Shown: positions 1,850-18,821, counted from the stretch's first letter. The stretch: 64,000 nucleotides of DNA from Polyangia bacterium (GCA_044228505.1 JBGAUT010000016.1:43387-107386), one strand, 5' to 3'. Program-made: numbers and translations. Notes: a model not told the origin generated them from the letters alone.

Positions 1850-2213
1850 AGTACTGCTGGTCGACGACAGTGAGATCTGTCGAGAGACTGCGAAGCTCAT
1901 GCTAGATGACTACGGCTTTGATGTCATCGCACTCGACTCACCGATAGGATTTAGTGTTCGAATGCGCGAGCACAAGCCAGACGTGGCCTTGATTGACGTG
2001 AGTATGCCTGCTCTGAACGGTACACACTTGGTCGAGATCGCGCATCGCCATGGCAACAAAGGAGTCTGCCCCATCATCTTGTTTTCAGGCCGTAGTCGTC
2101 GTGAATTGGACACTCTGGCCCGTCAGTGTGGAGCGGATGGAGTGATCTCGAAGTCTGATGACTGGCCTACCATCGCGAGACTTCTGACCGAGTACCTGCG
2201 TCGTGCGCGTTAG
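1830..2213 (+). CDS. response regulator receiver domain protein (CheY-like)
   Basis: KVLLVDDS...DVALIDVSMPALNGTHLV...ILFSG: single REC domain with conserved Asp pocket. Overlaps the cheR stop. Confidence 0.8.
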   Translation: MTNRRFKVLLVDDSEICRETAKLMLDDYGFDVIALDSPIGFSVRMREHKPDVALIDVSMPALNGTHLVEIAHRHGNKGVCPIILFSGRSRRELDTLARQCGADGVISKSDDWPTIARLLTEYLRRAR

Positions 2214-2544
2214 GGTCAATTCCTACTGATCGATCCTGCAAAAATCCATACGATAGGTTCCGTCAGCACAGGTGGGCGAGTTTCCCGCAGAAGTGCTTCT
2301 CCGGAAACCGTTCGCGAAGATCCTCTGTCGTCAGTAGGGTTCCTCTTTTGCGGACTGGCAAGGGTTGCTGGCAAAACTTGCCGGGTTGCAAGTTTGGAGA
2401 TCCTTGCTAGCAAGCACTTTGCGTCGGGAACGTCTAACTTGGCTGCCCCATCGGAGCATCAGAGCGGTGGCACAGATTTCGCTTTTGAATCTACTTGTCC
2501 TCCATCGCTTACCAATCCTTAGTGACTTGAAAGGGACCGCTACC

Positions 2545-4407
2545 ATGGCCAAGAGAACACCGATCCTGACCTGCTTCGGACTACTCCTTTGCACTGCAGC
2601 AGCTGGATGTTCTGCCTCGTCGAGTGGGGCGGATGCAATTGCTCCGGTGAATTCCTCCAGCACTGCCGACCGGGCCATCGCGGAGGCAGACATCATTGCG
2701 CTTGATAGCGGCAGGCTCTATGCACTCTCTGCGGCAGGGACGGTCTCTGTGGTAGACGTTTCAGTTCCTAGTCAGCTAGCGCTGCTTGGACAAACGAGAA
2801 TGGCGGGTGAGCCGTTTGAGATGTACCGCAGGGGTGATTTCCTGATCACCATGTGGAATGGATCGTTTTCCGCAACTGGAACCGCGAATCCACCGCTCCC
2901 CGAGCCAAGCAGCACTCGCTATGTTCCACCGCCTCCCCGCGATCCGAACTCCGGTGCTGCGGTCGTGGTGCTCGACGTTCGCGATCCGTCACGAATTCGT
3001 CCGGTGGCAACGTTTCCAGTTCCCGGCGAGTTAGCCGATTCTCGAATCGTGGGCGATGTGTTGTACCTTGCGACCTACCAAAACGCCAAGTGTTACAATT
3101 GTGGTGATACCCAGCGTACTGTGGTTACCAGCTTCGATGTGAAGAACACTCTGTCGCTTCGTCGGGTCGACCAGGTTGTCTTTAAGAGCAATGCACCAGA
3201 GTCTTTCAATTTACCCTGGGGTTCGAACTGGAAGCGGAGTCTGTTTGTCACCAATGAGCGTCTCTACGTTGGCGGACATGCTGACCTTGACCCGCGTCTG
3301 TACGGAGATTCCGCTCAAGCGGCAAAGGAAGGAATCATCGACGTACTTGATGTGACGGATCCCGGAGGTCGACTACAACTTGGCGCTCGGATTGAAGTGG
3401 CTGGAGCGGTACTCAGTCGCTGGCAAATGGAAGAGCGTGATGGTGTGCTGCGGGTCATTAGCCAGCGCGGAGCAGGGCGCACGGGAAATGGTCAGGGAAT
3501 GCCGCAGGTCGACACGTATTCGATCGTGAACACCAAGACCTATCTACCGCTCGGCCACACGTCGATCAAACTGCCTCGGCAAGAAGGTCTGCGCACCGTC
3601 CGTTTTGACAAAGATCGCGCCTATGCCATTACCTACAATCAGACCGATCCACTGTTTACCATCGATCTGAAGGATCCCGCTGTGCCCATGGTTCGGGGTG
3701 AGCTAACCATGCCAGGCTTTATGTACTACCTGGAACCATACGGAGATCGGTTGATTGGTCTGGGAGTCGACCGCGATGACCCGCGAGGAAGCCTGAACGT
3801 CTCTCTGTTCGATGTCAGCAACCTAGACCGACCAAAAATGATCAGCCGGGTTCCATTTGGTACTCGCTCTGTGGGCGAAGACTACGTGGTGATCAACTAC
3901 GAGCTGCCTGAAGATCAGGATCGAATTCAAAAGGCTTTTCGTGTGTTCCCAGATGGCCTCGTTGCCGTTCCCTACTCTGATGTGCGCACCTACTACTCCG
4001 GTGATACTTGTGATTCACTACGGAGTGGAATTCAGTTGATGGACTGGTCCGGAGATTCTTTGGTGAAGCGGGCATTCCTCCCTGTCAAAGGGAATCCTCG
4101 TCGAGCTATTGAGCTGGGAACCGAACTGCTGGCGGTGTCGGATGCTACGGTGAGCTCGTTCTCTTTGGTGGACCATGGCGTTGCCAAGAAGACCGCTGAT
4201 GTGACGATTGGAACCTGCACTCCGCGTGTTTTGCCTGAAAACTATGGTTTTGATGGAGAGGGAGACTACTACGGCTTCGGCCTGTTTGGTTGCACGGTGG
4301 GCGGTCCTACTGTACGGCCTGCACAAGGTGCGGGTGCCGCCGTAGTGTTGCTGTTTGGCCTCCTGCTCCGTTTGATCGCTCGTCGCAAGTCATCCCTCCG
4401 TGCTTGA
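2545..4407 (+). CDS. secreted beta-propeller-like lipoprotein with C-terminal MYXO-CTERM-like sorting tail
   Basis: ATG at 2545 gives MAKRTPILTCFGLLLCTAAAGCS, a lipoprotein signal. The C-terminus is GC...GAGAAVVLLFGLLLRLIARRKSS: Gly/Cys, a hydrophobic helix, then an Arg-rich tail. Confidence 0.6.
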   Translation: MAKRTPILTCFGLLLCTAAAGCSASSSGADAIAPVNSSSTADRAIAEADIIALDSGRLYALSAAGTVSVVDVSVPSQLALLGQTRMAGEPFEMYRRGDFLITMWNGSFSATGTANPPLPEPSSTRYVPPPPRDPNSGAAVVVLDVRDPSRIRPVATFPVPGELADSRIVGDVLYLATYQNAKCYNCGDTQRTVVTSFDVKNTLSLRRVDQVVFKSNAPESFNLPWGSNWKRSLFVTNERLYVGGHADLDPRLYGDSAQAAKEGIIDVLDVTDPGGRLQLGARIEVAGAVLSRWQMEERDGVLRVISQRGAGRTGNGQGMPQVDTYSIVNTKTYLPLGHTSIKLPRQEGLRTVRFDKDRAYAITYNQTDPLFTIDLKDPAVPMVRGELTMPGFMYYLEPYGDRLIGLGVDRDDPRGSLNVSLFDVSNLDRPKMISRVPFGTRSVGEDYVVINYELPEDQDRIQKAFRVFPDGLVAVPYSDVRTYYSGDTCDSLRSGIQLMDWSGDSLVKRAFLPVKGNPRRAIELGTELLAVSDATVSSFSLVDHGVAKKTADVTIGTCTPRVLPENYGFDGEGDYYGFGLFGCTVGGPTVRPAQGAGAAVVLLFGLLLRLIARRKSSLRA

Positions 4408-4546
4408 TTCTGCTCGCCGGTTTCAGCAGACCGGCAGCGCTTGCCTGGAAAATCAGCCACGATGACAGGCCGAGCCGCTTCACCGCTTCCATCGAATCTG
4501 CTCTAACGATATTGTCCGCGACACTGGCTCAACGTACAGTGCCGCC

Positions 4547-5659
4547 ATGTTGGAACTGCAACACACCGACAAAGCCGTTGAGAGCCCAGATTTGTCTCCG
4601 ATTTTCGTGATTGGAACGGGTCGATCGGGAACCACCCTGTTGCGGCAGATGTTGAACGCGCATCCCCGCATTCACATCACACACGAAGCTGCATTCTACA
4701 GCTATGCGCAGCACATGCCAGCGGGTTCATCCGTGGATGAATGGCTGGAGCGTTACTTCGAGACGTTCTCATTTGCGTGGATGCATTTGGATCCACGCGA
4801 GGTTCGCGAGGCGCTGCCAAGGGGTCTATCAAAGGACCAGATGCGCGAGGTGTATCTCACCATCATGAGACTGCAAGCGCGACAGCGGGGCAAGGTGCGC
4901 TTCGGTGAAAAGAATCCTCTCGATACCCACAATCTCCCGCGTATTTTTTCGGACTTTCCGGATGCCAGGGTGATCTGCATCATGCGCGATCCTAGACCGA
5001 CGGTACTGTCGTTCAATCGGATGCCATTTGGCACAACCAGTACGATGCTCAACGCGCAGTTGTGTCGCATTCAGTACGAACACATCAAGCCGTACCTGAA
5101 CCGTATCTTGGAAGTACGGCTGGAAGACCTAACTGCCGAGCCCATGCAGACCATGCGGTCCATCCTGCATTTTGTGGGCGAGCCGTGGGATGACGTGGTG
5201 CTTGATCATGTGAAGCACTCGCAGACCGATGATGTACCGCCACTGCCGTGGTTTGTTGGGGCAACTCAACGAGCACCGAATCAGCGTGAGAGCCGAGGCC
5301 GCGATGAGTTAGATCCGGTGTGGACCCGGATCGTCGAATGGGTGAATCAGGAATCGATGACCCACTATGGGTACGAACGGGCCGTGCTTGTGAAGGAACC
5401 GTCGCGTTGGGAGTATGTCTGGGCATTTTGCAAAGACATAAGAGGCATGGCGGAGGCTGCATATCGTCTGTTGTCCATGAAGCGGCTGCTCGATCGTCAC
5501 TTCCAAGGTCGTGAGCGACTCGACCCTCAACGCGGAATGGAAGAGAACGTGCAGCTTAACCCAGCAGCCTGGAGCAACTATCCACAGTTCGAGATGCCGC
5601 AAGTTCCCCGACCAGCGGCCCTCCTGCCCCGCACGATTCAAACGTCTCAAGGCCAATGA
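4547..5659 (+). CDS. sulfotransferase family protein
   Basis: N-terminal IFVIGTGRSGTTLL PAPS-binding P-loop typical of sulfotransferases; ~370 aa. Confidence 0.65.
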   Translation: MLELQHTDKAVESPDLSPIFVIGTGRSGTTLLRQMLNAHPRIHITHEAAFYSYAQHMPAGSSVDEWLERYFETFSFAWMHLDPREVREALPRGLSKDQMREVYLTIMRLQARQRGKVRFGEKNPLDTHNLPRIFSDFPDARVICIMRDPRPTVLSFNRMPFGTTSTMLNAQLCRIQYEHIKPYLNRILEVRLEDLTAEPMQTMRSILHFVGEPWDDVVLDHVKHSQTDDVPPLPWFVGATQRAPNQRESRGRDELDPVWTRIVEWVNQESMTHYGYERAVLVKEPSRWEYVWAFCKDIRGMAEAAYRLLSMKRLLDRHFQGRERLDPQRGMEENVQLNPAAWSNYPQFEMPQVPRPAALLPRTIQTSQGQ

Positions 5660-5726
5660 ATCGGTAAGGTAGCAGGGTTGTGCCATCGGAACTTCGGCTG
5701 AGAGGAGTCGAGAGGAGTCGAGAGGA

Positions 5727-7073
5727 ATGACGATGAAGAGCAGTCTGCAGCGAGCCGGATCACCGAGAAGTCTTCTATCGCAGCTTATTTCTGCACCTGA
5801 TTTGGTACAAACCGTGCGGGCGCTTCCGGCTCCGGCCTTTTCTGCTTTGATTCGACACGTTGGCGTGGAAGATGCGGGAGAGCTTGTCGCACTGGCGACG
5901 AAAGAGCAGCTCGTGACCGCGTTCGATGAGGATCTCTTTGTCAACACCCGGCCCGGCGAAAGGGAGACGTTCGATGGGGCCCGCTTTGCGGTCTGGCTTG
6001 AAGTCCTTCTCGAAGCTGGTGATGAGGTCGCTGCCCGTCGAGTTGCCGATCTTTCGGAAGACTTTGTGGTGCAGGCGATTTCAAGGCTCATCGTGGTACT
6101 GGATCATGATGCGCTGCTTGGCCGCATGAACGAACGAGGACGCGATGTAGAGTACGCAGACAAGGCGATCGAGCGTGCTCTGTCCGAGGAGATTGATGGG
6201 TATTTGCTGCTCTGTCGGGAGTACGATGGTTGGGACGCGGTGATGTCGCTCATCCTGGCGCTGGATCGGAATCAACGTGATTTTTTGGAACGGATCCTGA
6301 GCCGATGTGCAGCGCTGGCCAGTGGATACCTCGATGATCTAAGTGTGCTCACGGGCATATTGTCCGCAGAGGACTCGCTCAGTGAAGATGTCGAAGCTGA
6401 GCGTGAGGATCGTCGCAGCCAGCAAGGCTACGTAGAGCCTCGTTCCGCCCGAGCGTTCCTTGCACTTGCGAGGCAGCCCGGCGCTTCTGATCGAAAATGG
6501 AGCGAACGCGATCCGATGACGCAGTCCTATTTTCGTGAACTGGCGCGGGCCTCGGCGGCTCTCCCCACGACTGTGCCTTCGGTGGAATCGGCCTCTCCCA
6601 AACTCATGGCTTTGCTCGCTGAAGTTGGAGTTGTGCAGCGTGCACCAGGTCGTGCGTTACTCGGAGCCGCTGCTCCGACGTCGATGAATGCACAGAGTCC
6701 GCTGCTTGCGGCGTTGCAGCTACTGTTTGAACAGAATCCGGAGTGCTTCCATCTGCGAATGGAGGAACTGGCCTATCTTTCTAATGTCCTTGTGGCTGGG
6801 GCCAACAACAAGGGGGCTCGATTCCGTGCAGCGGAAGCGGCCGAAGCGGCGCTGGCGACCTGTCGTTTGGGGGCGCAACTGGTTCACGCGGAACGGAGCG
6901 ATGCTTCGCAGCGTTTGTCTCAGCCCGTGACACCGCAGGCCCTTTGTCAGGTGCTCAAGGCCTATGGTGCCGACCTGCTGTTTCGCAGAGCCAGCAGCAT
7001 GCTGGTCACCCATCATCCCCGCTCACCAGGATTCCTTCGATCTGAGGCAGAACTCGACGAACTGGTAAAATGA
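5727..7073 (+). CDS. hypothetical protein (448 aa)
   Basis: Long ORF with a triple GAGAGGAGTC repeat immediately upstream acting as an SD-like motif. No recognisable motif. Confidence 0.5.
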   Translation: MTMKSSLQRAGSPRSLLSQLISAPDLVQTVRALPAPAFSALIRHVGVEDAGELVALATKEQLVTAFDEDLFVNTRPGERETFDGARFAVWLEVLLEAGDEVAARRVADLSEDFVVQAISRLIVVLDHDALLGRMNERGRDVEYADKAIERALSEEIDGYLLLCREYDGWDAVMSLILALDRNQRDFLERILSRCAALASGYLDDLSVLTGILSAEDSLSEDVEAEREDRRSQQGYVEPRSARAFLALARQPGASDRKWSERDPMTQSYFRELARASAALPTTVPSVESASPKLMALLAEVGVVQRAPGRALLGAAAPTSMNAQSPLLAALQLLFEQNPECFHLRMEELAYLSNVLVAGANNKGARFRAAEAAEAALATCRLGAQLVHAERSDASQRLSQPVTPQALCQVLKAYGADLLFRRASSMLVTHHPRSPGFLRSEAELDELVK

Positions 7074-7096
7074 AGCTGTCTGAATCGTTGCTGTGA

Positions 7097-7711
7097 TTGG
7101 CAGAGTGGATTAGGCTACGGTCCACTTTGTCTGAACAGCGCTCAATCTCGCCCGATGAGATGTTTGACCTGCCGATCCGTCGTTACGACGGGGCAGTCTA
7201 CTTGGTAAGCACGCCGCAAGATCGTGAGCGAGCATTGGCCGACATCAGGACAGAGAGCGTAGTTGGTTTTGACACCGAGACACGACCTGCTTTTCGAAAA
7301 GGAGAGAGCTATCTTCCTTGCCTGGCGCAGGTTGCAACTGCACGAGCGGTCTATTTGTTCCAGCTTCAGCAGCAGGATTTTTCTGCGGAAATGCGAGAGC
7401 TACTGGCCTCCGAGCGAGTCGCCAAAGCAGGGGTTGCTCTGGCCAATGATCTTCGCGGGTTAAAGAAGCTGATCGAGTTCGATGCTCGATCCATCGTCGA
7501 CCTGGATCGGGTGGCGCGACACCATGGATTCAAGCAGCCGGGAGTGCGCAACCTCGCAGGTCTGCTTCTCGGTTTTCGGATTCCCAAAGGAACCAAGACT
7601 TCAAACTGGGCCGCACGACAATTGTCTCCCCAGCAGATTTTGTATGCAGCTACGGATGCGTGGGCGTGTCGGGAGCTATACCTTCGGTTCTGTGAGCTCC
7701 GCCTGGTCTAA
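7097..7711 (+). CDS. 3'-5' exonuclease domain protein (RNase D-like, DEDD family)
   Basis: VGFDTETRP (Exo I motif) and YAATDAWA (Exo III). Track start is TTG 7097; ATG 7160 (MFDLPIRRY) is an alternative start. Confidence 0.65.
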   Translation: MAEWIRLRSTLSEQRSISPDEMFDLPIRRYDGAVYLVSTPQDRERALADIRTESVVGFDTETRPAFRKGESYLPCLAQVATARAVYLFQLQQQDFSAEMRELLASERVAKAGVALANDLRGLKKLIEFDARSIVDLDRVARHHGFKQPGVRNLAGLLLGFRIPKGTKTSNWAARQLSPQQILYAATDAWACRELYLRFCELRLV

Positions 7712-7785
7712 GCCTGGCCATTAGGTGCCCAACTTGGCCTGAGAATCCCATTGTTTGGACGCGGACCGTATGCGATCCTAGCGAG

Positions 7786-8961
7786 GTGAGACTCTGGGGA
7801 CCATACAAGCCCACACCTCCTAAAACGCAGTGGCGACTGGTGATCTCGGAGCACGGCTCGCGACGCTCGGTCTGTTTCAATTCAGAAACCGAGGCACTGC
7901 ATTTTCGAGAGAATCTGCGGGCACAAGCGGCGGATCTTGCAACTCATTCGCTGACCGCAAGACAGGCGATTGAAGAGTACATCTCGGAAAAAGAGCGAGA
8001 GTGTGTGGCGGTCTCTGTGCTTACGGTGAGGGAACGCCTGATGCGATTCCTTCCGCTCGATACGCCGCTCCGTTACTTCGATGACGTGCTTGCTCAGCAG
8101 ATCTATGATCGCGAGGTCCAGCGGATTACCAAGCGAAGGAAGCCTGTGGCTGCCGCAACCCATCGCGCAACCCTTCGAACCACGAAAGAGTTTTGGCGAT
8201 GGTTGGTGATGCGGAAGTACGTGAATCACAATCCCTGGGCGCAGATTCTACCTGTAGGAAGACTGAATCATGGCAAGCCGCAGCCCACCATTGGCCAGGC
8301 GCAGAGGCTGGAGTCCTATTTGGTGGCTGGTGCGCAGGCGAATGAGGGCAAGCTGGCGCTGCTTCTGCAACTATATTGCGGACTCCGCAGCGGGGAAGTA
8401 TTGGCACTGAAGGTTCGAGACATCGAGCAGGTCGTCATTGCAGGAGAACGGGTGATCCAAGTCTGCGTCGACCGTGGAAAAACCAAGCATGCGCGGCGAG
8501 CGGCTCGCGTCGCACCCCGAGTCGGAGAACTCCTCATTGATTACATCAAGGGTCGACCAGCGGAGCAGAGAGTGTTTGCTGCCGATCGCTCCGCTCCGCC
8601 GAAAGGTGCATGGCTTCACAAGAGACTGGCTCTGATCTGTCAGGAGCTCGGATTGCCACAGTACTGTCCGCATAGCCTGCGCGGCCTCAACGCAACGATT
8701 GCGCTGGAGGGCGGTGCTACGATGGAAGCCATTGCCAAGGTTCTCGGTCATGGCAGCACTGCCGTGACGGCCAAGCACTATGCCAAGCCGGACAGCGTCT
8801 TAAATGCCAGCCTTCGAAGGGTTGCGGAAGTCCTGTCGAGTGCGTCTTCCTACGTGGAAGAGTCGGTGGTATCCGAAGAAGCGGCGGTGTCTGCGGTTGT
8901 GAGTTCGCTCAGTCCCGGTCAGCTCGCGCTGCTGCGCAAGGTAATCCTTCAGCACGGTTGA
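7786..8961 (+). CDS. site-specific tyrosine recombinase / phage-type integrase
   Basis: C-terminal catalytic domain with LRSGEVLAL (Arg), HSLRG (H-x-x-R), LGHGS (His) and HYAKP (Tyr nucleophile). Starts at GTG 7786. Confidence 0.75.
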   Translation: MRLWGPYKPTPPKTQWRLVISEHGSRRSVCFNSETEALHFRENLRAQAADLATHSLTARQAIEEYISEKERECVAVSVLTVRERLMRFLPLDTPLRYFDDVLAQQIYDREVQRITKRRKPVAAATHRATLRTTKEFWRWLVMRKYVNHNPWAQILPVGRLNHGKPQPTIGQAQRLESYLVAGAQANEGKLALLLQLYCGLRSGEVLALKVRDIEQVVIAGERVIQVCVDRGKTKHARRAARVAPRVGELLIDYIKGRPAEQRVFAADRSAPPKGAWLHKRLALICQELGLPQYCPHSLRGLNATIALEGGATMEAIAKVLGHGSTAVTAKHYAKPDSVLNASLRRVAEVLSSASSYVEESVVSEEAAVSAVVSSLSPGQLALLRKVILQHG

Positions 8962-9147
8962 CCCTGCGTGTTCAGCTACTGCCGCAACCTCGCTGTCGGA
9001 TGGCGCATACAATGTCATGACGCATCGTGCATGTCAGACGGCAGTGACTGCGATGCCGAACGCAAAGTATCAGAGCTTCCATCGATCTGCTTGTAACATA
9101 GAGCGTGAGAGTGCGCGCCACGGGCCGCCCTATCCGGGTCAGCCATC

Positions 9148-9588
9148 ATGCAAGTCGAATCACCAGAAGCACGGACGTGGATCGGGCAGATCATCGGGAA
9201 CCATCGCCTGGTCCGTGTGCTGGGACGTGGCGGTATGGGAATGGTGTTCGAAGCGGTTCACGAGGGAGTGCTAGGGCGGGCAGCGATCAAGATTCTGCGT
9301 CCCGATGTCACCAGCCGAACGGATGTGACGACTCGCTTCTTCAATGAAGCCCGTGCTGCCAATGCCGTCCAGCATCCAGGCATTGTGCGCATCTTCGATT
9401 GTGGATTTACGGAGTCCGGGGTCGCCTATCTGTCGATGGAGTTCTTGGAAGGGGAGTCGCTTCGATCGCGACTGGCCAGGGTGAGGCAGCTACCCACCAA
9501 GACCGCGCTGCGAGTAGCACGTCAGATTGCCTCAGCGCTTGCAGCCGCGCATCGAGTGAAAATCATCCATCGAGATCTCAAACCCGAT
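9148..9588 (+). pseudogene. Hanks-type Ser/Thr protein kinase, N-terminal fragment (subdomains I-VIb) interrupted after HRDLKPD
   Basis: LGRGGMGMVF (Gly loop), AAIKIL (Lys), HPGIVRIF, SMEFLEGESL, IIHRDLKPD. The frame then reads 10 unrelated codons to a stop at 9621. Confidence 0.7.
9581..9588. repeat. 8-bp direct repeat AACCCGAT (left copy) flanking the insertion in the kinase gene
   Basis: An identical octamer recurs at 13847-13854, exactly where kinase homology resumes. Confidence 0.6.
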
Positions 9589-9754
9589 CATCTTCGCTTT
9601 CGTCTGGCGGCGTTGGGATAGGTTCCATTGTGCGAGTGATAGGGCAGGGAACAAAGTTCGGAAACGATCTGCGCGCTCTCGGTCTGGCACAATTGCGTAG
9701 AGGTCACCGATTGTGGCATCAAAGTACGGTACTAAACCAACGATGGAGACAAAG

Positions 9755-11218
9755 ATGAGTGACACCAAGAAGCTGACTACCGCAGCGGGGGCACCAGTTG
9801 TCGACAACCAGAACTCGATGACCGCCGGTCCGCGAGGACCTCTTTTGATGCAAGACATCTGGTTCCTGGAGAAGCTTGCGCATTTCGACCGCGAAGTGAT
9901 TCCAGAGCGTCGCATGCATGCCAAGGGGTCGAGTGCGTATGGATCATTTACCGTAACACACGACATCTCTAAGTACACCCGAGCGAAGATATTCGCTCAG
10001 GTTGGCAAGAAGACCGATCTGTTTGTTCGCTTCTCCACCGTCGCTGGAGAGCGAGGTGCTGCGGATGCAGAGCGCGACATTCGGGGCTTTGCGATCAAGT
10101 TCTATACCGAGGAAGGAAACTGGGATCTGGTTGGCAACAACACGCCGGTATTCTTCCTTCGTGACCCTCTCAAATTTCCAGACCTAAACCATGCGGTGAA
10201 GCGCGATCCGCGAACCAACTTGCGCAGTGCTCGCAACAATTGGGACTTCTGGACCTCGCTACCGGAGGCGCTGCACCAGATTACCATGACCATGAGTGAG
10301 CGAGGAATTCCCTATTCCTATCGACACATGCATGGATTTGGGAGTCACACCTTCAGCTTGATCAACTCCCAGAACGAGCGCTTCTGGGTGAAGTTCCATC
10401 TGCGGACGCAGCAAGGGATCAAGAATCTGTCTGATGCAGAGGCCGAGGCGATCATTGGCAAGGATCGCGAGAGTCACCAGCGAGATCTGTTTGACAGCAT
10501 TGAGAGACGGGACTTTCCTCGCTGGACGCTGTTCATTCAGGTGATGCCGGAACGGGAAGCCGCCACGTGTCCGTACAACCCGTTTGACCTTACCAAAGTC
10601 TGGCTGCACAAGGACTATCCGCTCATCGAAGTGGGCGTGATGGAGCTGAACCGCAATCCCGAAAACTACTTTGCAGAGGTTGAACAGTCGGCGTTCAATC
10701 CGGCGAACGTGGTGCCCGGAATCGGTTTTTCACCAGATAAGATGCTTCAGGGACGACTCTTTTCGTACGGCGATGCCCAGCGCTATCGGCTTGGGGTGAA
10801 TCATCAGTCCATTCCGGTGAATGCGCCTCGCTGTCCGGTCCATAGCTACCATCGTGATGGCGCGATGCGAGTCGATGGAAACTTCGGAGGTCAGCTTGGC
10901 TATGAACCGAATAGCTATGGACAGTGGCAACAGCAGCCGGGCTTTGCGGAACCTCCGCTCTCGCTGGAGGGGTCCGCAGATCACTGGAACCATCGTCAGG
11001 ATGAAGACTACTACTCCCAGCCAGGCTTGCTGTTCCGGCTCATGACGGGAAACCAGCAGCAGACACTGTTTGATAACACTGCGCGAGCGATGGGTGATGC
11101 ACCAAGAGAGATCAAGCTTCGTCACATCGGCAATTGTCTGAAGGCCGACCCCGCGTATGGAGCAGGTGTCGCAAAGGCACTCGGCCTGCCTCTGAGCGAA
11201 ACGCGCAGCTCATCCTAA
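9755..11218 (+). CDS. katA: monofunctional heme catalase (clade-3-like)
   Basis: [63 protein letters not shown] and the heme-ligand region [22 protein letters not shown] precedes ATG 9755; an in-frame ATG at 9713 is also possible. Confidence 0.85.
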
Positions 11219-11239
11219 CGCCCGTGGATCGACTCCGCA

Positions 11240-13699
11240 TCAACACTTGATCCGTTTCATATCGGGATCGTACAGCGGTCGCAGAGACGCGATCGCTGGA
11301 TAGCGCTGCCCGGCAATGTCTACTTCCCACATGCCTCGATCGAGATACTCTTGATCGAGCGCTTGTCCCGCTTCGATCATGGCCAATCCGACGGCTCCTC
11401 CGATGGTGAAGCCATACGAGGCGGCGCGAATGTATCCGACCGGGTGGCCGTTGCGGTAGACAATCTCAGCATGGAACATCAGTGGCTCCGGATCTTTCAC
11501 CAGCACTTGCACCAGGCGTCGCGTTAGCGGTCCTTCTGCTTTTTTGGCGAGCACTGCATCGCGTCCCAGAAATCCACCCGGCTTCTTTAGATCTACCGCA
11601 AAGCCAAGACCTGCCTCCAAGACCGAGTCGGTGTTGTCGATATCGTGACCATAATCACGGTATCCCTTTTCCATGCGCAAGCTGGCCAGCGCCTTGAGTC
11701 CGGCATGTCGTAAACCGAATTCTGATCCGGTTTCTACAATCCGATCATAGACATGGGGGGCTTGCTCGGAGGGGATGTAGAGTTCGTAGCCCAGCTCACC
11801 CAGATAGGTGATGCGGATACAGAGTGCCCGTGCAAAGCCGATGTCGATTTCGCGGGCGGTGCGGAATGGGAATGCCGTATTGCTAAGATCGGTGGTGGTC
11901 ACCCGTTGCAGCAGCTCTCGCGAGCGAGGTCCTTGAATGTTGATCTGCGCGTAGCCAGAGGTCACATCGGTTACAAAGGCGTGTGCGTGCGCCGGGACAT
12001 GGCGACGCATCCAGGTCTCTGCATGCCGATGAGCGGTGTCTGAGGCTACGACCCAGTATCGCTCATCATCGAGCTTGGTAACGGTCAGGTCCGCTTCGAG
12101 CGTGCCGCCCTCGTTGAGCCACTGCGTGTAGGTGATAAGCCCGCTTGGTCCGTCGACTTGGTTGGCCGACAGATAATTGAGAAGGGCTCCTGCGTCCCGA
12201 CCTTGCACCAAGAACTTCGCCATGAACGACATGTCCATCAAGATCACGCCTTCACGGGTCGCTTGATGCTCTGCTTGCCAGTAGGGAAACCAGTTCTGTC
12301 TGCCAAAGGACAATCGCTCGACCTTTGGCTCGATGCCAGGCGGCGCATACCAGTCCGGTCCTTCCCAACCACTGACGTCCTTAAAGTATGCGCCCTGCGC
12401 GGCCAGCCGATCATAGATGGCCGATCTCTTACAGCCGCGTGCGGTCTGCATGGAGCGCGTAGGATAGTGGCACTGATACACCATTCCAAGCGATTCCACC
12501 GTACGGGTGCGACGGTACTCCGGGTTCGACTGGTATGTGTGGAAGCGATCGATGTGCATGCCGGTGACATCACAGTCGGGTCGACCGTTGATGATCCAAT
12601 GGGCCAACACCCGTCCCATGCCACCACCCGTGATGATTCCGATCGAGTTGAGTCCGGCAGCCACAAAGTAGTTCTTTAGTTCTGGTGCTTCTCCGACCAC
12701 CGGACGCAGATCCGCGGTGAAGCTCTCCGGTCCGCAGAAGAATTTTTTGACTCCTGCATCTAGCGAGATGGGAATTCGCTCCATTGCCTTTTGCAGGTAT
12801 GGACCCATTCGCTCCCAGTCCGGACTGATCTCTCCAAAAGAAAAGTCGTCCGGAATACCACCGACTTTCCACGGAGCACAGACTGGCTCGAACAGACCGA
12901 CAAGCAGGCCGCCGACTTCCTCTCGATAGTATCCGTAGGAGCTGGGGTCTTCGAGAACCGGCAGAGAGGCGGTGAGCTGGGGGATCTTCTCTGTGATGAG
13001 ATAGTAGTGTTCTGCAGCCTGCAATGGAACGTTGACCCCGGCTTGGGCTCCGAGCTGACGTGCCCACATTCCGGCGCAGTTTACCACGTATTCTGCTTCG
13101 ATGTTTCCGTAGGGAGTCTGGACGCCAGTGACCACACCACGCTTGGATAGGAGTCCGATGGCAGGCACTCCTTCCAGGATGGTTGCACCTTGCATTCGGG
13201 CCCCTTTGGCAAGTGCCATTGTGATGTCAACGGGATTGGCACGGCCATCTTCCTTGACGTAGAAACCAGCCAAAATGTCGTCGGTGCGGGCCAATGGAAA
13301 GAGCTGTTCTACTTCCTTAGCGGAAATCTCATGGACATCCACTCCGCAGTGTCGATTGAACGCAGAGACACGCCGGTATTCCTCCAATCGGTCTTCATCC
13401 GCTGCGACTTCGATGAATCCGACCTGCTTGAATCCGGTCGATAGTCCAGTTTCTGCTTCGAGCCGCAGGTACAGATCGCGGGAGTACTTCCTCATCTCAG
13501 TCGATGTCTCAGAGGTCGAACCAAACGTCACGATGAGCCCTGCCGCATGCCAGGTCGTGCCAGAGGTGAGCCGATCCCGCTCGAGTACGACTACGTCCTT
13601 CCATCCCATGTGGGCCAGGTGGTATGCGACGGAGGTTCCGATGATTCCACCGCCAATGACGACAACGCGAGCGCGAGCAGGAAGGTTTGTGGGGTACAT
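11240..13699 (-). CDS. FAD-dependent oxidoreductase fused to a GcvT-like folate-binding domain: dimethylglycine/sarcosine dehydrogenase or dimethylglycine oxidase family (819 aa)
   Basis: N-terminal VVVIGGGIIGTSVAYHL Rossmann dinucleotide motif and TTWHAAGL (the covalent-FAD His region of this family). The C-terminal ~350 aa resemble the aminomethyltransferase (GcvT) fold. The size matches DMGDH/DMGO. Confidence 0.8.
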   Translation of the reverse strand: MYPTNLPARARVVVIGGGIIGTSVAYHLAHMGWKDVVVLERDRLTSGTTWHAAGLIVTFGSTSETSTEMRKYSRDLYLRLEAETGLSTGFKQVGFIEVAADEDRLEEYRRVSAFNRHCGVDVHEISAKEVEQLFPLARTDDILAGFYVKEDGRANPVDITMALAKGARMQGATILEGVPAIGLLSKRGVVTGVQTPYGNIEAEYVVNCAGMWARQLGAQAGVNVPLQAAEHYYLITEKIPQLTASLPVLEDPSSYGYYREEVGGLLVGLFEPVCAPWKVGGIPDDFSFGEISPDWERMGPYLQKAMERIPISLDAGVKKFFCGPESFTADLRPVVGEAPELKNYFVAAGLNSIGIITGGGMGRVLAHWIINGRPDCDVTGMHIDRFHTYQSNPEYRRTRTVESLGMVYQCHYPTRSMQTARGCKRSAIYDRLAAQGAYFKDVSGWEGPDWYAPPGIEPKVERLSFGRQNWFPYWQAEHQATREGVILMDMSFMAKFLVQGRDAGALLNYLSANQVDGPSGLITYTQWLNEGGTLEADLTVTKLDDERYWVVASDTAHRHAETWMRRHVPAHAHAFVTDVTSGYAQINIQGPRSRELLQRVTTTDLSNTAFPFRTAREIDIGFARALCIRITYLGELGYELYIPSEQAPHVYDRIVETGSEFGLRHAGLKALASLRMEKGYRDYGHDIDNTDSVLEAGLGFAVDLKKPGGFLGRDAVLAKKAEGPLTRRLVQVLVKDPEPLMFHAEIVYRNGHPVGYIRAASYGFTIGGAVGLAMIEAGQALDQEYLDRGMWEVDIAGQRYPAIASLRPLYDPDMKRIKC

Positions 13700-13846
13700 A
13701 AAAGGGAGAATAATCTCAGGAGACCTGTGCTCGGCAAGCCCTTGTGTCTGAGCACCGCACGAAGGAACCCATTCTTCCTTTCCCCGCTCATTCCTTGTTC
13801 CTCGTTCTCCGGAGATTTCTCGTCCAATCCTGCCGATTTGTGAGTC

Positions 13847-13854
13847 AACCCGAT
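13847..13854. repeat. 8-bp direct repeat AACCCGAT (right copy)
   Basis: Identical to 9581-9588; encodes the PD of HRDLKPDN in the resumed kinase frame. Confidence 0.6.
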
Positions 13855-15357
13855 AACATCATGCTGGTTCCTGACCAGGACTTCCCTGGTGGAGAGCGGG
13901 TTAAGATCCTCGACTTCGGAATTGCCAAGATGGCCGAGGGCTTAAGTGCTCAGCCACTTCGCACCAAGAGCGACGTACTCATGGGCACTCCGACCTATAT
14001 GGCACCGGAGCAGTGTCGTGGTGCGAAACTCGCGACCGACCGATCCGATGTGTATTCACTCGGGGTCATTTTGTATCAGATGCTTGCGGGGTATCCGCCA
14101 TTTTTGGGGGCCTCGATGGGCGACTTGATCGCGATGCATTTGATGGATGAGCCGCCACGACTAACGGACGCCGTGCCTGAGATCAGTCCCAAGATTGCAA
14201 AGCTCGCCTATGCGATGCTCGCCAAAAAGCCTGATTCTCGACCCTCGATGGAGAAGGCACAAAAGACGCTGCTCCGATTGGAAGAGGAAGCCCAACTGGC
14301 ACCGCCGCTACCGGCAGTGCAGCGAGACATCGAGACGTCGTACGGTGACTCTCAGCACGGCACTGTGGATGTTCCGGATGGGCATCCGAACAGGATTCCT
14401 GCGGATGCAAACGAGCTGAAGGTGCCAGTACCCAATCGGGAAGGAGCGACTGACAAACGTCCGTCGGAAATGAAAGCCGCAGGGTCCTCGCGTCCGTTGC
14501 CGAGCCGTATCGTAACAGACTCTCGTCACGTACATATTCCCAAGCGAACACTTCAAGTCATTATCGCGGCCTTCGTTGCCAGTACACTACTGGTGACGAC
14601 TGGGATTCTGCTGGGAACACAGGCCCGGCGTCCGATAGACCGCAGTGCACGCTCGGTTCTTCCGGAACCGGAACACAGAGACGATGTTCCAGCGTCCTCG
14701 GTTGCACCGCAATCGGCCAGACCAACACCGGAAGTCGCGGCCAGTAGGCCCATTCCAGCGATTCCAGGGGATGTCCCTCCTTCGAGCAAAGCAGACAAAG
14801 GGGGCGCTCCACATCGTGAGCCCACCTTGACCGCCAGCAAACATGTAGACAGCCCGAACGCGACAGGCAGCAAGGTTCATTCTAGTGGTGCGGCGATTGA
14901 AGAGAAGCCGGTCGCTATGGTTGAGGAGAAGCCGGTCAGTGTGGTGGAGCAAAAGCCCCCCACGCAGAGCCCGTCCTCGGTCAGTCCTGAGCAAGCTGTT
15001 CCGGCACAGCCTCCGACGGTGATTGCGCCTCCTCCTCAGGTTGCTCCCGTTCCTAGACCTGTTCCTGTGCCGGAGCGTACTGTCGATGATCCGTTTGATC
15101 CGCTGCGCACCGCAGAGGACTTCATCTTGCAAGGGAACTATCGTCGCGCAATGGATCTGGCCACGCAGTTTGGAAAGCAAGATCCGATGCGTGCTTGGGA
15201 AATCTACGGCCGTGCAGCGTGTGGGATGCGGCTGCAGGACCGGGCGAGTCGGGCGATGCGTGAACTGCAGCAGCGGCATGAAGACCGCCGCATTCAGTCT
15301 CTGCTCGCGTATTGCCGACTTCACAAGCTACCGCTATCTGCGCCTGACTCGCAGTAG
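13847..15357 (+). pseudogene. Ser/Thr protein kinase C-terminal fragment (subdomains VIb-XI) with Pro-rich linker, one TM helix and a small C-terminal helical domain
   Basis: PDNIMLV...ILDFGIAK...GTPTYMAPEQ...DVYSLGVILYQMLAGYPPF, then a P/A/S-rich region, the TM helix IIAAFVASTLLVTTGILLG, and a C-terminal TPR-like tail. The nearest in-frame upstream Met (13744) lies in non-kinase sequence. Confidence 0.65.
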
Positions 15358-15752
15358 TTCGTTCCTAAGGCTTGCGATCAGTGCCCGAGCGTTGTCCTTC
15401 TGCAATCGGCAGCCCGGCCATCTGCTCCTTGCTCATGGCTCCCGAGTAATCGCTGCTTTGGCCATACGGTCGGTCCAGTCGGTGTAGTTTCGCCGTCCTA
15501 TGGTCTAGGCCAGACCGCGACCGTGAAATTGGGCACCAGCACTGGGCTGAGTGTTCTGCAGGTCATCACGAGATCTCATCCGGTTCTCTCCCCGTCGACG
15601 CGAATCGAGTATCAGCACCAAGCAGCCGAAGTTGCGTAGATTCTCAGTAGTTTGGCCGACTCAGGTGATTGCAGAGCGGCAGTGTGTCGCCACTTCCTGA
15701 ACAGTTCCCCTGCAGGATTTGAGGGCGATTTTCTCGTCGCAGGTATTCTTGC

Positions 15753-17801
15753 CTAATGTCCTCGATGGACGATTCCCTGGCTGTGGGCAGTGTCTAGGAC
15801 CGAACAGATCTGGCGGGTCAGTGTAAGGACTCGTGCGATAGGCAGCGGTCGTGGCGCTTTGCCTTTCGGACTGATGATCTCATCGAGCGACTGCCCGTCG
15901 ATGAACTCCATCACCAAGTAGAACAAGGCACCACTCACATTGCCGTGATCGTAGATAAAGACGCTGTTTGGGTGATTGATTTGAGAGGATAGTTTGGCTT
16001 CCCGCTGAAACAGTTCGATGGCATCCGGGGCGACCATTGCTGACGGTGAGAGTACTTTGACCGCTGCTTCCCTGCCGAGCTCCGTGTGGCGAGCCTTGTA
16101 GACCATGCCCATCCCGCCTTCTCCCAGTCGGGCGTAGCAAGTGTACTGACCCACCGTGAAGGGATCGATCTCGCCTCTGCTGGACTTGGCTTCCTCGGCT
16201 TTGGTCGTGGGAAAGGTGTCGGCTTCGCTCCCAGCTCGCTGGGTCTTGGCATTCTGTAACACCAGCAGGCGGTCGCGCCGAATCACCCACAGCAGCAGAC
16301 CGGCACCCAGGGCCGCTGCCAGCGCGATGATGAGCAGTACGATTCCCAAGAACAGCTTCTTCTTGTCTGCGTGCGGAGCAGGTTGTTGCTGCGCCGTCTC
16401 GGGGGAAACGCTCCCGCCCCCGCCCGACCCAGGACTCGGGACCATGAGGCGGTTCTGCGTGGACTCAGCTTGAGCAGGTTCCGCTGGTGGCTCCACTTGA
16501 TCGGATTTTTGCTTTGATGACTCGGTGAGCTTGATGCGCTCATCGTCGTCGCGGCTGTCTGGACCAGGACCACGTACTCTCTGTTTCTTTCCTGCTTGTG
16601 CGGTGCTGGGCGCGGTCTTCGCGGGGGCCTTCTTCAGTTGTTTGGCTTCGGCAGGTACTTGCTTGTGCCCCGTGACCATCGGTCTCGGGGGCGCGGCGGC
16701 ACCAGGGGCGCTAGGGGCTCTCGGTGCTTCAGGGGGCGGGCTTTCGATGGCAAATGAATCAGTTTCGCCTGCGCGTGAAGGTGGTGCCGCACCTTGCTGG
16801 ACGGACGCGGCTTCTGCTCGTGGGCGCGCAGGGGCTCTCGTTGTGCTTTTGGGTTTGAACTTGCGTTTGATGGGTGCGGTGGTCTTTTCTTCTTCTGGTG
16901 CTGGCTGTGCTTTCTTGTCGGCGAGAGGCATCGCCTCCTCAGACGCCTTCCCGATAGGACGAGAAGCCTCCAGCGCGGGCGGCGGGGCTCCGGGTTGGAC
17001 TGCGGCGGGGGCACTGGCTTGCGGTGCGTGCTCGGGGCTGCTGCGCAGAAGCAGCAATGAGCCCGAGGCCAGCAGCAGCACCACCGCAACAAGCAGCGCC
17101 GCGACAGCAGATTTGCTCTTGCGGGCCTGCGCTGGCGAAGCTGGACCTTTTGAACCCTCCGCAAACGCTGAAGCCCGCATCGGAGAGCTCGGTACGGACC
17201 TGGCCGCGCTGTCCTCTTGTGATGCCGACGATGCAGCTGGGACCGCGTGCTGTGCGGTATCGAGCAGCTTTGCAACCAGCTCGTCCAACGATCGTGGTCG
17301 TGCGGCAGGTTGCTTATCGAGCGCATGCAATAGCGTCTGCGCAAGCTCGGCGGACAGCTCGGGTCGTAGGCTGCGCGGATTCTCGGGCCGCTCTAGCAGA
17401 ACCTTGATCCGGATGGCGGCGGGGCTGCTTCCGGCAAACGGAGGCTGTCCGGTTAGCAGATGGTAAGCGACCGCAGCGACGTGGTAGACCGTGCTCGCCA
17501 CTGCCTCGGGCTTGCCTGCAAAGACCTCTGGCGCGACGTAGGCTGCGACCAAATCGACAGATGGATCTTTGGCTGCCTCGGGCCCAGCAAGGGTGATGGC
17601 AGAAAGCTCACCGATGGATTCGTCCCCGGTCGCTGAGGTGACCAGTTTGACCTGCGATGGGTGAACAAGCCGTGCCTTGCCATCGGTAAGCTGCGATGAC
17701 AGCGTCTTACATAGCTCGCTGACCAGACGAAGTACACGCGGAATATCGTGACTTCCGGCCAGCGAAGCCATCGTTTGCGCTTCGCTTTCGCTGCTCGACA
17801 T
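15753..17801 (-). CDS. anomalous 682-aa ORF: degenerate kinase C-lobe (pseudokinase-like) at the N-terminus, Pro/Ala-rich region, one TM helix, then a canonical kinase N-lobe ending ...GIVHRGH-stop
   Basis: The C-terminal part reads LGEGGMGMVYKARH...AVKVL...HPNSV...VMEFIDGQSL...IVHRG then stop, and nothing kinase-like follows in any frame. The N-terminal part reads ARLVHPSQVKL (catalytic D, K and N all replaced), then YVAPEV and LLTGQPPFAG. A possible TM helix is LFLGIVLLIIALAAALGAGLLLWVI. Confidence 0.5.
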   Translation of the reverse strand: MSSSESEAQTMASLAGSHDIPRVLRLVSELCKTLSSQLTDGKARLVHPSQVKLVTSATGDESIGELSAITLAGPEAAKDPSVDLVAAYVAPEVFAGKPEAVASTVYHVAAVAYHLLTGQPPFAGSSPAAIRIKVLLERPENPRSLRPELSAELAQTLLHALDKQPAARPRSLDELVAKLLDTAQHAVPAASSASQEDSAARSVPSSPMRASAFAEGSKGPASPAQARKSKSAVAALLVAVVLLLASGSLLLLRSSPEHAPQASAPAAVQPGAPPPALEASRPIGKASEEAMPLADKKAQPAPEEEKTTAPIKRKFKPKSTTRAPARPRAEAASVQQGAAPPSRAGETDSFAIESPPPEAPRAPSAPGAAAPPRPMVTGHKQVPAEAKQLKKAPAKTAPSTAQAGKKQRVRGPGPDSRDDDERIKLTESSKQKSDQVEPPAEPAQAESTQNRLMVPSPGSGGGGSVSPETAQQQPAPHADKKKLFLGIVLLIIALAAALGAGLLLWVIRRDRLLVLQNAKTQRAGSEADTFPTTKAEEAKSSRGEIDPFTVGQYTCYARLGEGGMGMVYKARHTELGREAAVKVLSPSAMVAPDAIELFQREAKLSSQINHPNSVFIYDHGNVSGALFYLVMEFIDGQSLDEIISPKGKAPRPLPIARVLTLTRQICSVLDTAHSQGIVHRGH

Positions 17802-17882
17802 CCAATCCCCCTGGCCCCTATGGTGCCATACGGCTGAGTTGGCAACTCACAGATCGCTACCCAGCGATGGCCTGCGTGGGGG

Positions 17883-18821
17883 CTAGCTACGGCAGGGATT
17901 GCTGACTCTACCGCCCGGCGCAACAGAGTCCGTGACCCAGGTGTTGCCGCCGATGATTGCACCTCGGCCAATCACCGTCTCCCCTCCGAGGATCGTCGCG
18001 TTGGCGTAGATGAGGACATCGTCTTCGATGGTTGGGTGTCGCTTACGGTTCTGTTGCTGACGGGTCTTCCCGGTTGGTAGGCTCATCGCGCCGAGCGTCA
18101 CTCCCTGGTAGATGCGGACCCGGTTGCCGATGATGGATGTCTCACCGATGACGACTCCGGTTCCGTGGTCAATAAAGAAGGACTTACCGATTTTGGCACC
18201 CGGATGGATATCGATGCCGGTCTCGGTATGAGCCTGCTCGGTCATCATACGGGGCACAATCTGGGCTCCGAGGTGAAGCAAGGTGTGTGCAATTCGATAT
18301 GCAGTCACGGCCCGAACACCGGGATAGCACCAAGCGACCTCGATCAGACTTCGCGCAGCCGGATCACCCTCGAAGGCGGCCTGAACATCGAGCAGCACAT
18401 CGTTCCGCAGCGCGGGCACTCGGTTCAAGAACTTGCCGACGAGCCCTGTCGCTTCTTCTTGGCACTTGTCACACAGTGGTTGAGGTATCGGACAGCCGAC
18501 GTGTAGCCCTCGGCAGACCTGCTCGGTGAGCAGCACCCTGAGCGAGGCAATCCGGCCCTCCAACGAGGACCGTAGCATCGACGGTGCTGGACCTGGGCAT
18601 CCAGCCGAACCGGGCAGCATGAGTTCGCGCAGATTATCCAGTGCCGCAGATACTGCGATCCGCGATGGTAGCTCGTGTCCAGCGGTCAGTAGTACGCCAG
18701 TCTGTCGATAGGATGCGGCCAGCGCATCGGCCAGCTCGCAGTTTGACCGCGCAGCCTCCTCTGACTCTTGGGCAACCGAAGCTACCGACTCTGTTTGGGG
18801 AGAGGTTTGATCCATGTTCAT
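17883..18821 (-). CDS. cysE: serine O-acetyltransferase
   Basis: SATase N-terminal helical domain followed by left-handed beta-helix hexapeptide repeats: IHPGAKIGKSFFIDHGTGVVIGETSIIGNRVRIYQGVTLGA. Confidence 0.8.
   Translation of the reverse strand: MNMDQTSPQTESVASVAQESEEAARSNCELADALAASYRQTGVLLTAGHELPSRIAVSAALDNLRELMLPGSAGCPGPAPSMLRSSLEGRIASLRVLLTEQVCRGLHVGCPIPQPLCDKCQEEATGLVGKFLNRVPALRNDVLLDVQAAFEGDPAARSLIEVAWCYPGVRAVTAYRIAHTLLHLGAQIVPRMMTEQAHTETGIDIHPGAKIGKSFFIDHGTGVVIGETSIIGNRVRIYQGVTLGAMSLPTGKTRQQQNRKRHPTIEDDVLIYANATILGGETVIGRGAIIGGNTWVTDSVAPGGRVSNPCRS

Follow-up and report, generated by a model that had tools for sequence, protein, structure and literature searches.

A recombinase-less cargo cassette splits a Ser/Thr kinase gene of a Polyangia bacterium and shares putative attachment-site arm boxes with the surrounding integrase island

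Results

We analyzed a 64,000-nucleotide stretch of DNA from a Polyangia bacterium (GCA_044228505.1, JBGAUT010000016.1:43387-107386), hereafter the window, in which positions 9589-13846 form a cargo cassette that interrupts the coding sequence of a Ser/Thr kinase gene, K1. A first-pass annotation of the same sequence had described this segment as a catalase and an 819-aa flavoenzyme on opposite strands with no mobility gene, and had placed the tyrosine integrase at 7786-8961 outside the flanking direct repeats; open reading frames (ORFs) and Pfam profiles confirm the gene content, and the integrase does lie outside the repeats. The locus is built as follows.

7786-8961, plus strand: tyrosine integrase encoded by the surrounding island and a candidate for the cassette's helper (PF00589, 1.3e-13; phrog_1 integrase, 5.7e-32)
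9148-9588, plus strand: K1 N-terminal part, through HRDLKPD (ORF and Pfam)
9581-9588, plus strand: left 8-bp core AACCCGAT, in the K-P-D codons of K1
9589-13846, no strand: cargo cassette, 4258 bp, bounded by AACCCGAT (4266 bp including one core)
9755-11218, plus strand: small-subunit haem catalase of clade-3 type, 487 aa (PF00199, 6e-192, plus Catalase-rel)
11240-13699, minus strand: 819-aa flavoenzyme with a flavin adenine dinucleotide (FAD) and GcvT architecture, of the dimethylglycine/sarcosine dehydrogenase-oxidase family (Pfam DAO, FAO_M, GCV_T, GCV_T_C)
13847-13854, plus strand: right 8-bp core AACCCGAT, a direct repeat of the left core
13855-15357, plus strand: K1 C-terminal part, from NIMLV... 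(ORF and Pfam; intact orthologues P0001-P0003)

Both cassette junctions were read directly in the sequence, and K1 is split between HRDLKPD and NIML. At the left junction (9566-9589), the K1 codons ...ATC CAT CGA GAT CTC AAA CCC GAT run into CATCTTCGC...; at the right junction (13840-13865), ...GTGAGTC is followed by AACCCGAT and then by AAC ATC ATG CTG.... K1 breaks off with ...IIHRDLKPD at 9588 and picks up again with NIMLVPDQ... at 13855; fusing 9148-9588 to 13855-15357 yields an uninterrupted 647-aa Ser/Thr kinase, with the N half covering positions 4-127 of the Pfam Pkinase profile and the C half 126-259. The cassette therefore behaves as a gene-intervening element would, in that its exact removal restores the interrupted reading frame. 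AACCCGAT occurs twice in the 64-kb window, flanking the cassette on either side; this count is unremarkable in itself (2 seen vs 1.5 expected), and the informative part is the position of the copies. We found neither terminal inverted repeats nor long direct repeats at the cassette ends, and the ends CATCTTCGCTTTCG... and GACTCACAAATCGG... show no complementarity. The catalase and flavoenzyme genes are convergent with 21 bp between them, leaving 166 + 21 + 147 nt (334 nt in total) of non-coding sequence. Because this remainder cannot encode a recombinase, the cassette lacks one, and with the catalase and the flavoenzyme as its only genes it is without an integrase/excisionase module, as expected of a non-autonomous element. 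Separately, the low-complexity tail of K1 carries a 24-nt tandem duplication at 14897-14944 (EEKPVAMV / EEKPVSVV).

A protein search with the joined K1 returned intact orthologues at 88% and 81% identity. In contigs L010, L011, L012 and L013 the cassette is absent exactly at the repeat: each aligns to the window up to 9588 and resumes at 13847, with 8 bases common to both blocks. The empty-site sequence in the orthologues is ...AAACCCGATAACATCATGCT, and the site reads ...TCCATCGAGATCTCAAACCCGATAACATCATG. L010/L011, L012 and L013 all keep the window's gene order, sulfotransferase-(DUF6178)-exonuclease-integrase-K1. The right-hand neighbours in L012 are also those of the window (K2, hexapeptide transferase, FliQ/P/O), so in L012 synteny is conserved around a genuinely empty site.

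The protein cluster around the K1 N half includes members with variant tails, and one of these led us to contig L105 (ERZ27250671), which is occupied. Its order is K1N-AACCCGAT-catalase-(957 nt with an fn3-like gene)-flavoenzyme-AACCCGAT-K1C-K2N, and the site and core of its cassette are the same as in the window. The joined K1 of L105 equals the intact K1 of L010/L011, with nonsynonymous (dN) and synonymous (dS) divergence both zero over 1893 nt, and one of the L010/L011 contigs comes from ERZ27250670, the accession neighbouring that of L105. This sister lineage holds occupied and empty K1 alleles with identical K1 sequence.

Comparison of the window with L105 gave dS values of 0.289 (catalase), 0.322 (flavoenzyme) and 0.345 (K1). 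As the cassette values are similar to that of K1, the cassette has travelled with the clade and is not a recent arrival. The K1 kinase domain has a dN/dS of 0.036 with no stop codon and no frameshift, and K1 shows no more relaxation on the branch to the window than on that to L010. Such strong constraint indicates that K1 is intact often enough for selection to act on it; a permanently broken gene would look otherwise.

An exact look-up of the catalase sequence returned eleven contigs. One, L098 (SRR34385852, 4258 nt), reads as window positions 12737-13854 followed by 9581-12728, the whole unit minus 8 nt at the contig ends, with 6 single-nucleotide polymorphisms relative to the window. Its ends meet as ...GTGAGTC-AACCCGAT-CATCTTCGC..., with a single copy of the core, and a second, independent read assembly, L100 (SRR35242013), has the same end-to-end junction. 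The first base of both L101 and L103 is exactly 9581, the expected branch point of a de Bruijn graph if K1 and joined-end contexts are both present; the K1 context itself was seen in L097, L099, L102 and L104. Junction-spanning reads must exist, because the assembly k of 31 exceeds the 8-bp repeat. The joined-end contigs are either a 4266-bp circle or a head-to-tail tandem copy, and we infer that they are free circles. The first-pass annotation had suggested searching for other genomic copies of the insert ends. There is no further copy of either end in the window, the contigs found hold the K1 site or joined ends only, and an exact search of the JGI metagenomes for either end gave 0 matches.

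These observations bear on the least probable account that we considered, a single old illegitimate insertion for which the empty alleles would be ancestral and the joined ends would be tandem amplification by unequal crossing-over at the 8-bp repeats. It would agree with the host-like composition of the cassette, with its co-divergence with the host and with the fact that a tandem copy and a circle look alike in assemblies. Set against this are zero K1 divergence between occupied and empty alleles in one lineage while the cassette differs by about 0.3 dS between lineages, the unrelaxed constraint on K1 and, as described below, unrelated cargo at the same site in other lineages and conserved attachment-site arm boxes. 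The first-pass annotation had named composition and phylogeny identical to those of the neighbours together with conserved synteny as signs of ancient gene fission. Part of this holds, since the composition is host-like and the occupied arrangement is conserved in the sister lineage; fission is nevertheless not indicated, because empty alleles and end-to-end junctions exist.

The cassette and K1 lie inside a larger element, an integrative island that itself splits a second kinase gene, K2.

1-15760, no strand: right part of the ~23.3-kb integrative island (attP-, attR- and attL-type junctions)
15761-15779, minus strand: 19-bp island core CAGGGAATCGTCCATCGAG, in the QGIVHR codons of K2 (attR-type junction)
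15753-17801, minus strand: K2 kinase gene, cut after HR by the island; the ORF ends ...IVHRGH*

The island measures ~23.3 kb with the cassette and about 19 kb without it, its left end lying ~7.5 kb before the window, and comprises a Che-like cluster and genes for a beta-propeller protein, a sulfotransferase, a DUF6178 protein, an exonuclease and the integrase, followed by K1 with the cassette. Contig L001 is 99.8% identical to window positions 5907-15779, cassette included. Past 15779 it continues not into K2 but into a CheW-MCP-CheA-CheB-CheR cluster, and this cluster leads on to window position 1. L010 is a circular permutation of L011, and the 18922 nt of L010 equal the computed period of 18781 plus the megahit k of 141; the island assembles as a circle in several metagenomes.

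CAGGGAATCGTCCATCGAG is common to four junction types. Island-island (attP-type) junctions occur in L001, L010, L011 and L013, and junctions from the K2 N-part to the island (attR-type) occur at window 15761-15779 and in L012 and L105. The junction from the island to the K2 C-part (attL-type) opens contig L004, in which ACCTAAAGCCT (= DLKP) comes after the core. K2 is uninterrupted in the more distant L014, where it encodes 789 aa and continues HRDLKPHNVMV.... The 682-aa K2 ORF of the window ends ...IVHRGH* because the island sits in the QGIVHR codons directly before the D of the HRD motif, removing the last ~150 residues relative to the intact L014 orthologue. This ORF consists of a degenerate N-terminal domain resembling a kinase C-lobe, two membrane segments and a genuine kinase N-lobe, which is broken off at ...IVHRGH*.

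Three side observations concern the island and its setting. L001 carries an IS3-family element (17794-17935; OrfA begins MDKRKKEPRARRKFTSEYKAGAVRLV) at window position 5907, inside the DUF6178 gene (5727-7073); since the window lacks it, this is a strain polymorphism. The window is chromosomal, as it holds gyrA (44604-47309, minus strand), a penicillin-binding protein gene (54225-56606) and further housekeeping genes. No tRNA or Rfam feature was found in its 64 kb.

The integrase and K1 adjoin the island's attachment site, with the integrase 620 bp upstream of the left cassette core. The exonuclease-integrase-K1 order is kept in all lineages, as is the N-terminal extension of the integrase from the GTG at 7786. 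The protein has the tyrosine recombinase catalytic domain of lambda-type enzymes. Its best NCBIfam matches are weakly Xer-like (52 bits vs a cut-off of 335; 47.6 vs 220 for the XerA/integron model), and a search for phage and plasmid relatives returned only matches below 33% identity over half its length. No second integrase was found among the ORFs tested in the window.

In lambda-like systems, integrase arm-type sites are laid out as a pair of direct boxes, spaced by one helical turn, at a constant distance from a short core. We aligned the flavoenzyme-side cassette ends of four lineages (window, L105, L016, L107) with the core as anchor, defined a GGAA-N7-GGAA motif on these ends, and then sought it in the island arms and at further junctions. 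The resulting boxes in the window are as follows.

13780-13794, minus strand: cassette distal arm box GGAATGAGCGGGGAA (GGAA-N7-GGAA), 52 nt from the core
13815-13825, minus strand: cassette proximal arm box GGACGAGAAAT, matching the island-arm CGACGAGAAAAT at the same distance
15694-15739, minus strand: island arm boxes CGACGAGAAAAT (15728-15739) and GGAACTGTTCAGGAA (15694-15708), in the same layout as the cassette arm

The distal box, read as TTCC-N7-TTCC, lies 52-53 nt from the core in the cassette arms of all four lineages, including the inserts of L016 and L107, which carry different cargo (RND efflux and other genes; fatty-acid hydroxylase, TetR and other genes, respectively). The island arms of all four island lineages have it too, at 52-53 nt from their 19-bp core. 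Beyond these, it occurs 50 nt past a break of K1 in L004, where an AT-rich element, X, follows ...CCATCGAG, and 52 nt past two further K1-homologue breaks in L016, one after HR and the other after DFGIA. The background frequency of GGAA-N7-GGAA is 5.6e-5 per position and strand, and two of its four copies in the whole window are the arms described here. The proximal box, (C/G)GACGAGAAA(A)T, is found 21-33 nt from the core in the island and in the cassettes of the window and L105; X has it too, short of one base. For the cassettes carrying both boxes, cassette and island arms compared in register without gaps share 36-42 of 100 positions, vs 26 +/- 4 out of register. An unbiased search for k-mers shared among element ends was not significant; the boxes emerged only from the core-anchored alignment.

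The attachment site of the cassette is thus related to that of an autonomous element through both boxes at the same distances, with differing cores. Because cassette and island have this arm layout in common, we name the island integrase as the likely helper. Another integrase of the same family, encoded elsewhere (for instance on X- or Y-like elements that target K1), could serve the same site-specific, non-autonomous cassette, a possibility that we judge unlikely. The differing cores speak for such a helper, as do at least three other junctions with the same arm layout (X in L004, two in L016), which imply that several elements, and presumably several integrases, circulate. The cassette arm is nonetheless best matched by the island arm, with GACGAGAAA identical at 9/9 positions and CCACTTCC...TTCCC common in L105; moreover, the island integrase is always in cis to the site, and the 64-kb window offers no second one among its tested ORFs.

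Breaks at kinase catalytic-motif codons recur beyond this cassette. L107 has an unrelated insert at the same K1 site (fatty-acid hydroxylase, TetR and others), and the K1-like N-half ORFs P0249, P0250/P0253/P0256, P0257 and P0303, broken after LKPD(N), add at least four more unrelated tails to the list. P0254, P0267 and P0269 break after HRD with a common tail, and P0251 and P0252 break after DFGIA. K1-like C-terminal ORFs begin at the corresponding places (P0022 in L107; P0010-P0018 in L106).

Several of these loci merit description in their own right. In L004 (17119-17223), from a 99.7%-identical strain (DRR545331), K1 is cut after ...ATCCATCGAG, between window positions 9574 and 9575, by AT-rich TATTTTTTACGTAATTTTTCCGACGGAAAA...; because this sequence carries the same arm boxes, it is the end of a third element of the family, X. 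The end of X had 0 matches in viral contigs. In L016 (GCA_016794365.1, JAEUKB010000020.1; 1-1420 and 13440-13874) the K1 homologue is in three pieces: the N part breaks between HR and D, the middle piece spans 26 codons, and another break follows DFGIA; at each junction GGAA-N7-GGAA lies 52-53 nt away. In L106 (9000-9080), CAGGGAAGGAATCGTCC, which resembles the 19-bp island core, lies upstream of a K1 C-terminal fragment starting GIAK and adjoins an 8-kb gene for a 2403-aa fn3-rich protein. Finally, P0264, P0274 and P0345, on Polyangia contigs of 0.85 and 1.0 Mb from metagenome-assembled genomes, are different kinase paralogues truncated just past the ...YMSPE (APE) motif, after which they share the near-identical tail NITLQLSDGDHRQTGSWGLIGD; this suggests another element family aimed at a conserved kinase motif.

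The recurrence of site also bears on a non-autonomous transposon served by an unlinked copy-out/paste-in transposase, which we regard as very unlikely. On such an account the 8 bp would be a target-site duplication and the junction contigs would be transposon circles with a flank-derived spacer. Circles of IS256- and IS3-type elements likewise show an 8-bp repeat and an equal-length spacer at the circle junction, and an IS3-family element is active in the same population (L001). Yet the insert lacks terminal inverted repeats, occupies the same nucleotide position and 8-mer in the window, L105 and L016 (equivalent codons in L107), has no second copy at any other site and has arm boxes in common with a tyrosine-integrase island. 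With neither terminal inverted repeats nor, in the window and the contigs found, copies at unrelated sites, the element lacks both hallmarks of an insertion sequence or non-autonomous transposon.

We then turn to the cargo, for which the first-pass annotation had proposed a coherent oxidative pair linked by hydrogen peroxide. This proposal gained no support: the pairing is not conserved, the cargo varies among lineages, and the flavoenzyme appears by score closer to dimethylglycine dehydrogenase (DMGDH) than to the oxidase (454 bits against PDB 5l46, mitochondrial DMGDH; 355 bits against 1pj5, the Arthrobacter dimethylglycine oxidase), with a predicted domain architecture compatible with oxidases and dehydrogenases alike. 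The nearest solved structures of the catalase are 2isa, 4e37 (KatA) and 1m85 (Proteus mirabilis), which we take to be clade-3 catalases; mammalian catalases outscore HPII. Across the 80 reference-genome loci with the closest catalases, the flavoenzyme never adjoins, and the nearest reference-genome relatives of the catalase (84-87%) are spread over many phyla. Functional coupling of the two enzymes through hydrogen peroxide is possible, and nothing here indicates it.

Flavoenzyme homologues with 80-88% identity occur throughout Polyangia. In L014/L015 the gene is an ordinary chromosomal one with neither catalase nor arm boxes, and in L016 it sits at the same end of a 12.4-kb insert in the company of RND-efflux and hydrolase genes, again with no catalase. 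The L105 cassette holds a third gene between catalase and flavoenzyme: at 2251-3207 (= window 11219-11239), an extra 957 nt of lower GC encode a 184-aa secreted fn3-like protein. Judged from these gene neighbourhoods, the constant passenger is the flavoenzyme and not the catalase-flavoenzyme pair. No donor locus for the cassette was found among relatives of the catalase and flavoenzyme in reference genomes and Polyangia. Foreign composition was considered and rejected, since third-codon-position GC content and tetranucleotide usage are host-like, with 15% of equal-sized windows equally or more deviant.

Discussion

The first-pass annotation had raised the possibility of a non-autonomous cargo element mobilized in trans, and this is largely borne out by end-to-end contigs, by occupied and empty alleles with identical K1, and by arm boxes common to the cassette and the integrase island. 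We consider it probable that this is a recombinase-less integrative cassette in K1, moved by site-specific recombination with an enzyme acting in trans, most probably the island integrase.

The mechanism that we propose would proceed as follows. The free or tandem form would be the 4266-bp unit, with an attachment site made up of the core AACCCGAT and a flavoenzyme-side arm bearing GACGAGAAA (about +22) and GGAA-N7-GGAA (about +52). The cassette would enter and leave the K-P-D codons of K1 by conservative site-specific recombination; entry would split K1 between HRDLKPD and N, and exit would leave one core and restore the gene exactly. The recombination enzyme would be supplied in trans, its most probable source being the tyrosine integrase upstream of the left core. 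The island that encodes it itself circularizes, and integrates at the HRD codons of K2 through its 19-bp core, beside which lie the two boxes at matching distances. Both cargo genes, catalase and flavoenzyme, have upstream regions of their own and would merely be carried along. That the island integrase catalyzes cassette recombination is probable because the arm layout is common to the cassette, the island and three further K1-homologue junctions. X and the L016 elements, however, require additional integrases of this family.

Several points weigh against this proposal. The cassette core AACCCGAT differs from the island core CAGGGAATCGTCCATCGAG, no core-type binding motif common to all junctions could be defined, the opposite arms of cassette and island share no boxes, and the arm boxes are weaker in L016 and L107. 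The integrase N-terminus has no Pfam match to an arm-binding domain; a single-sequence structure model places three strands and a helix at residues 2-51 with low confidence (predicted local distance difference test score 56-78 there, 43 overall). No replication, transfer or excisionase genes were recognized in the island, and the missing excisionase-like gene is the part of this result that counts here. The joined-end contigs fit a tandem copy as well as a circle, two forms that assemblies render alike. Finally, for the lineage of the window itself, searching with the joined K1 protein yielded no intact copy at more than 90% identity.

Among known systems, the closest parallels are two. Cis-mobilizable elements (CIMEs) and 'hitcher' integrative elements are described as lacking a recombination module and using the integrase of a related integrative and conjugative element or island (PMC5704250, PMC7563491, PMC11389934). 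The cassette resembles them in that it has no recombinase, has an attachment arm like that of an autonomous element, lies inside or next to its candidate helper and shows an end-to-end junction. Unlike them, its core differs from the helper's, and its target is coding sequence in the helper's own kinase gene and not the helper's attachment site, so there is no simple tandem accretion. Dependence on the helper integrase, a further CIME trait, is for the cassette a proposed feature.

The second parallel is with gene-intervening elements. Skin in sigK, SPbeta in spsM, gin in gerE and the cyanobacterial nifD element carry their own recombinase (PMC5595907, PMC4191935). Like these, the cassette sits in coding sequence between short direct repeats (9 bp for gin), its excision restores the frame, and the gene is under selection. 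It differs in having no recombinase; the full match is the surrounding island, which splits K2. From its sequence, the cassette appears to work like a CIME-type hitcher combined with a gene-intervening element.

Integron gene cassettes likewise are recombinase-less circular cargo beside a tyrosine recombinase gene, and here too the cargo at the site varies by lineage. However, no attC-type hairpin is present: the 148-nt joined ends fold worse than shuffled sequences (-10 vs a mean of -14.4 kcal/mol, z = +1.72). The island integrase falls below all integron-integrase model cut-offs, and the cassettes have 2-3 genes with their own upstream regions and a site within a gene, with no arrays seen. 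Lacking both the attC hairpin and a neighbouring IntI-type integrase, it does not qualify as an integron gene cassette. Lambda-type systems are similar in their short identity core, in conserved boxes tens of bases off on one arm, here two direct GGAA boxes spaced by one helical turn, and in the four junction types displayed by the island (attP, attB, attL, attR). They differ in that neither an arm-binding domain nor an excisionase was recognized here, the boxes being putative and known from sequence alone, and in that the targets are catalytic-motif codons of Ser/Thr kinase genes and not tRNA genes.

Our literature searches, which covered open-access papers, turned up neither an account of integrative elements with kinase catalytic-motif codons as their target nor one of a cassette that lacks a recombinase and lies within a gene of its own helper. 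A bolder reading, which we hold to be doubtful, is that the integrase and K1 form a cassette-exchange platform: a Polyangia integrase family would use kinase HRD, KPDN and DFG codons and swap recombinase-less cargo circles with matching arms, as a reversible and possibly regulated kinase switch. If so, each gain or loss of metabolic cargo would at once turn a signalling kinase off or on, and the arrangement would amount to more than mere parasitism.

Returning to the cassette as cargo probably moved in trans, the locus offers a sequence-defined example of how cargo without a mobility gene may still move, through an attachment-site arm that copies that of the helper island and from a position inside the island's own gene. 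With the attachment cores, arm boxes and junctions defined in sequence, the system is open to direct test. Here one element is nested in another, and each interrupts a Ser/Thr kinase gene at the catalytic loop and would be able to restore it. Myxobacteria have very many Ser/Thr kinases, whose conserved motif codons may be to these elements what tRNA genes are to other islands.

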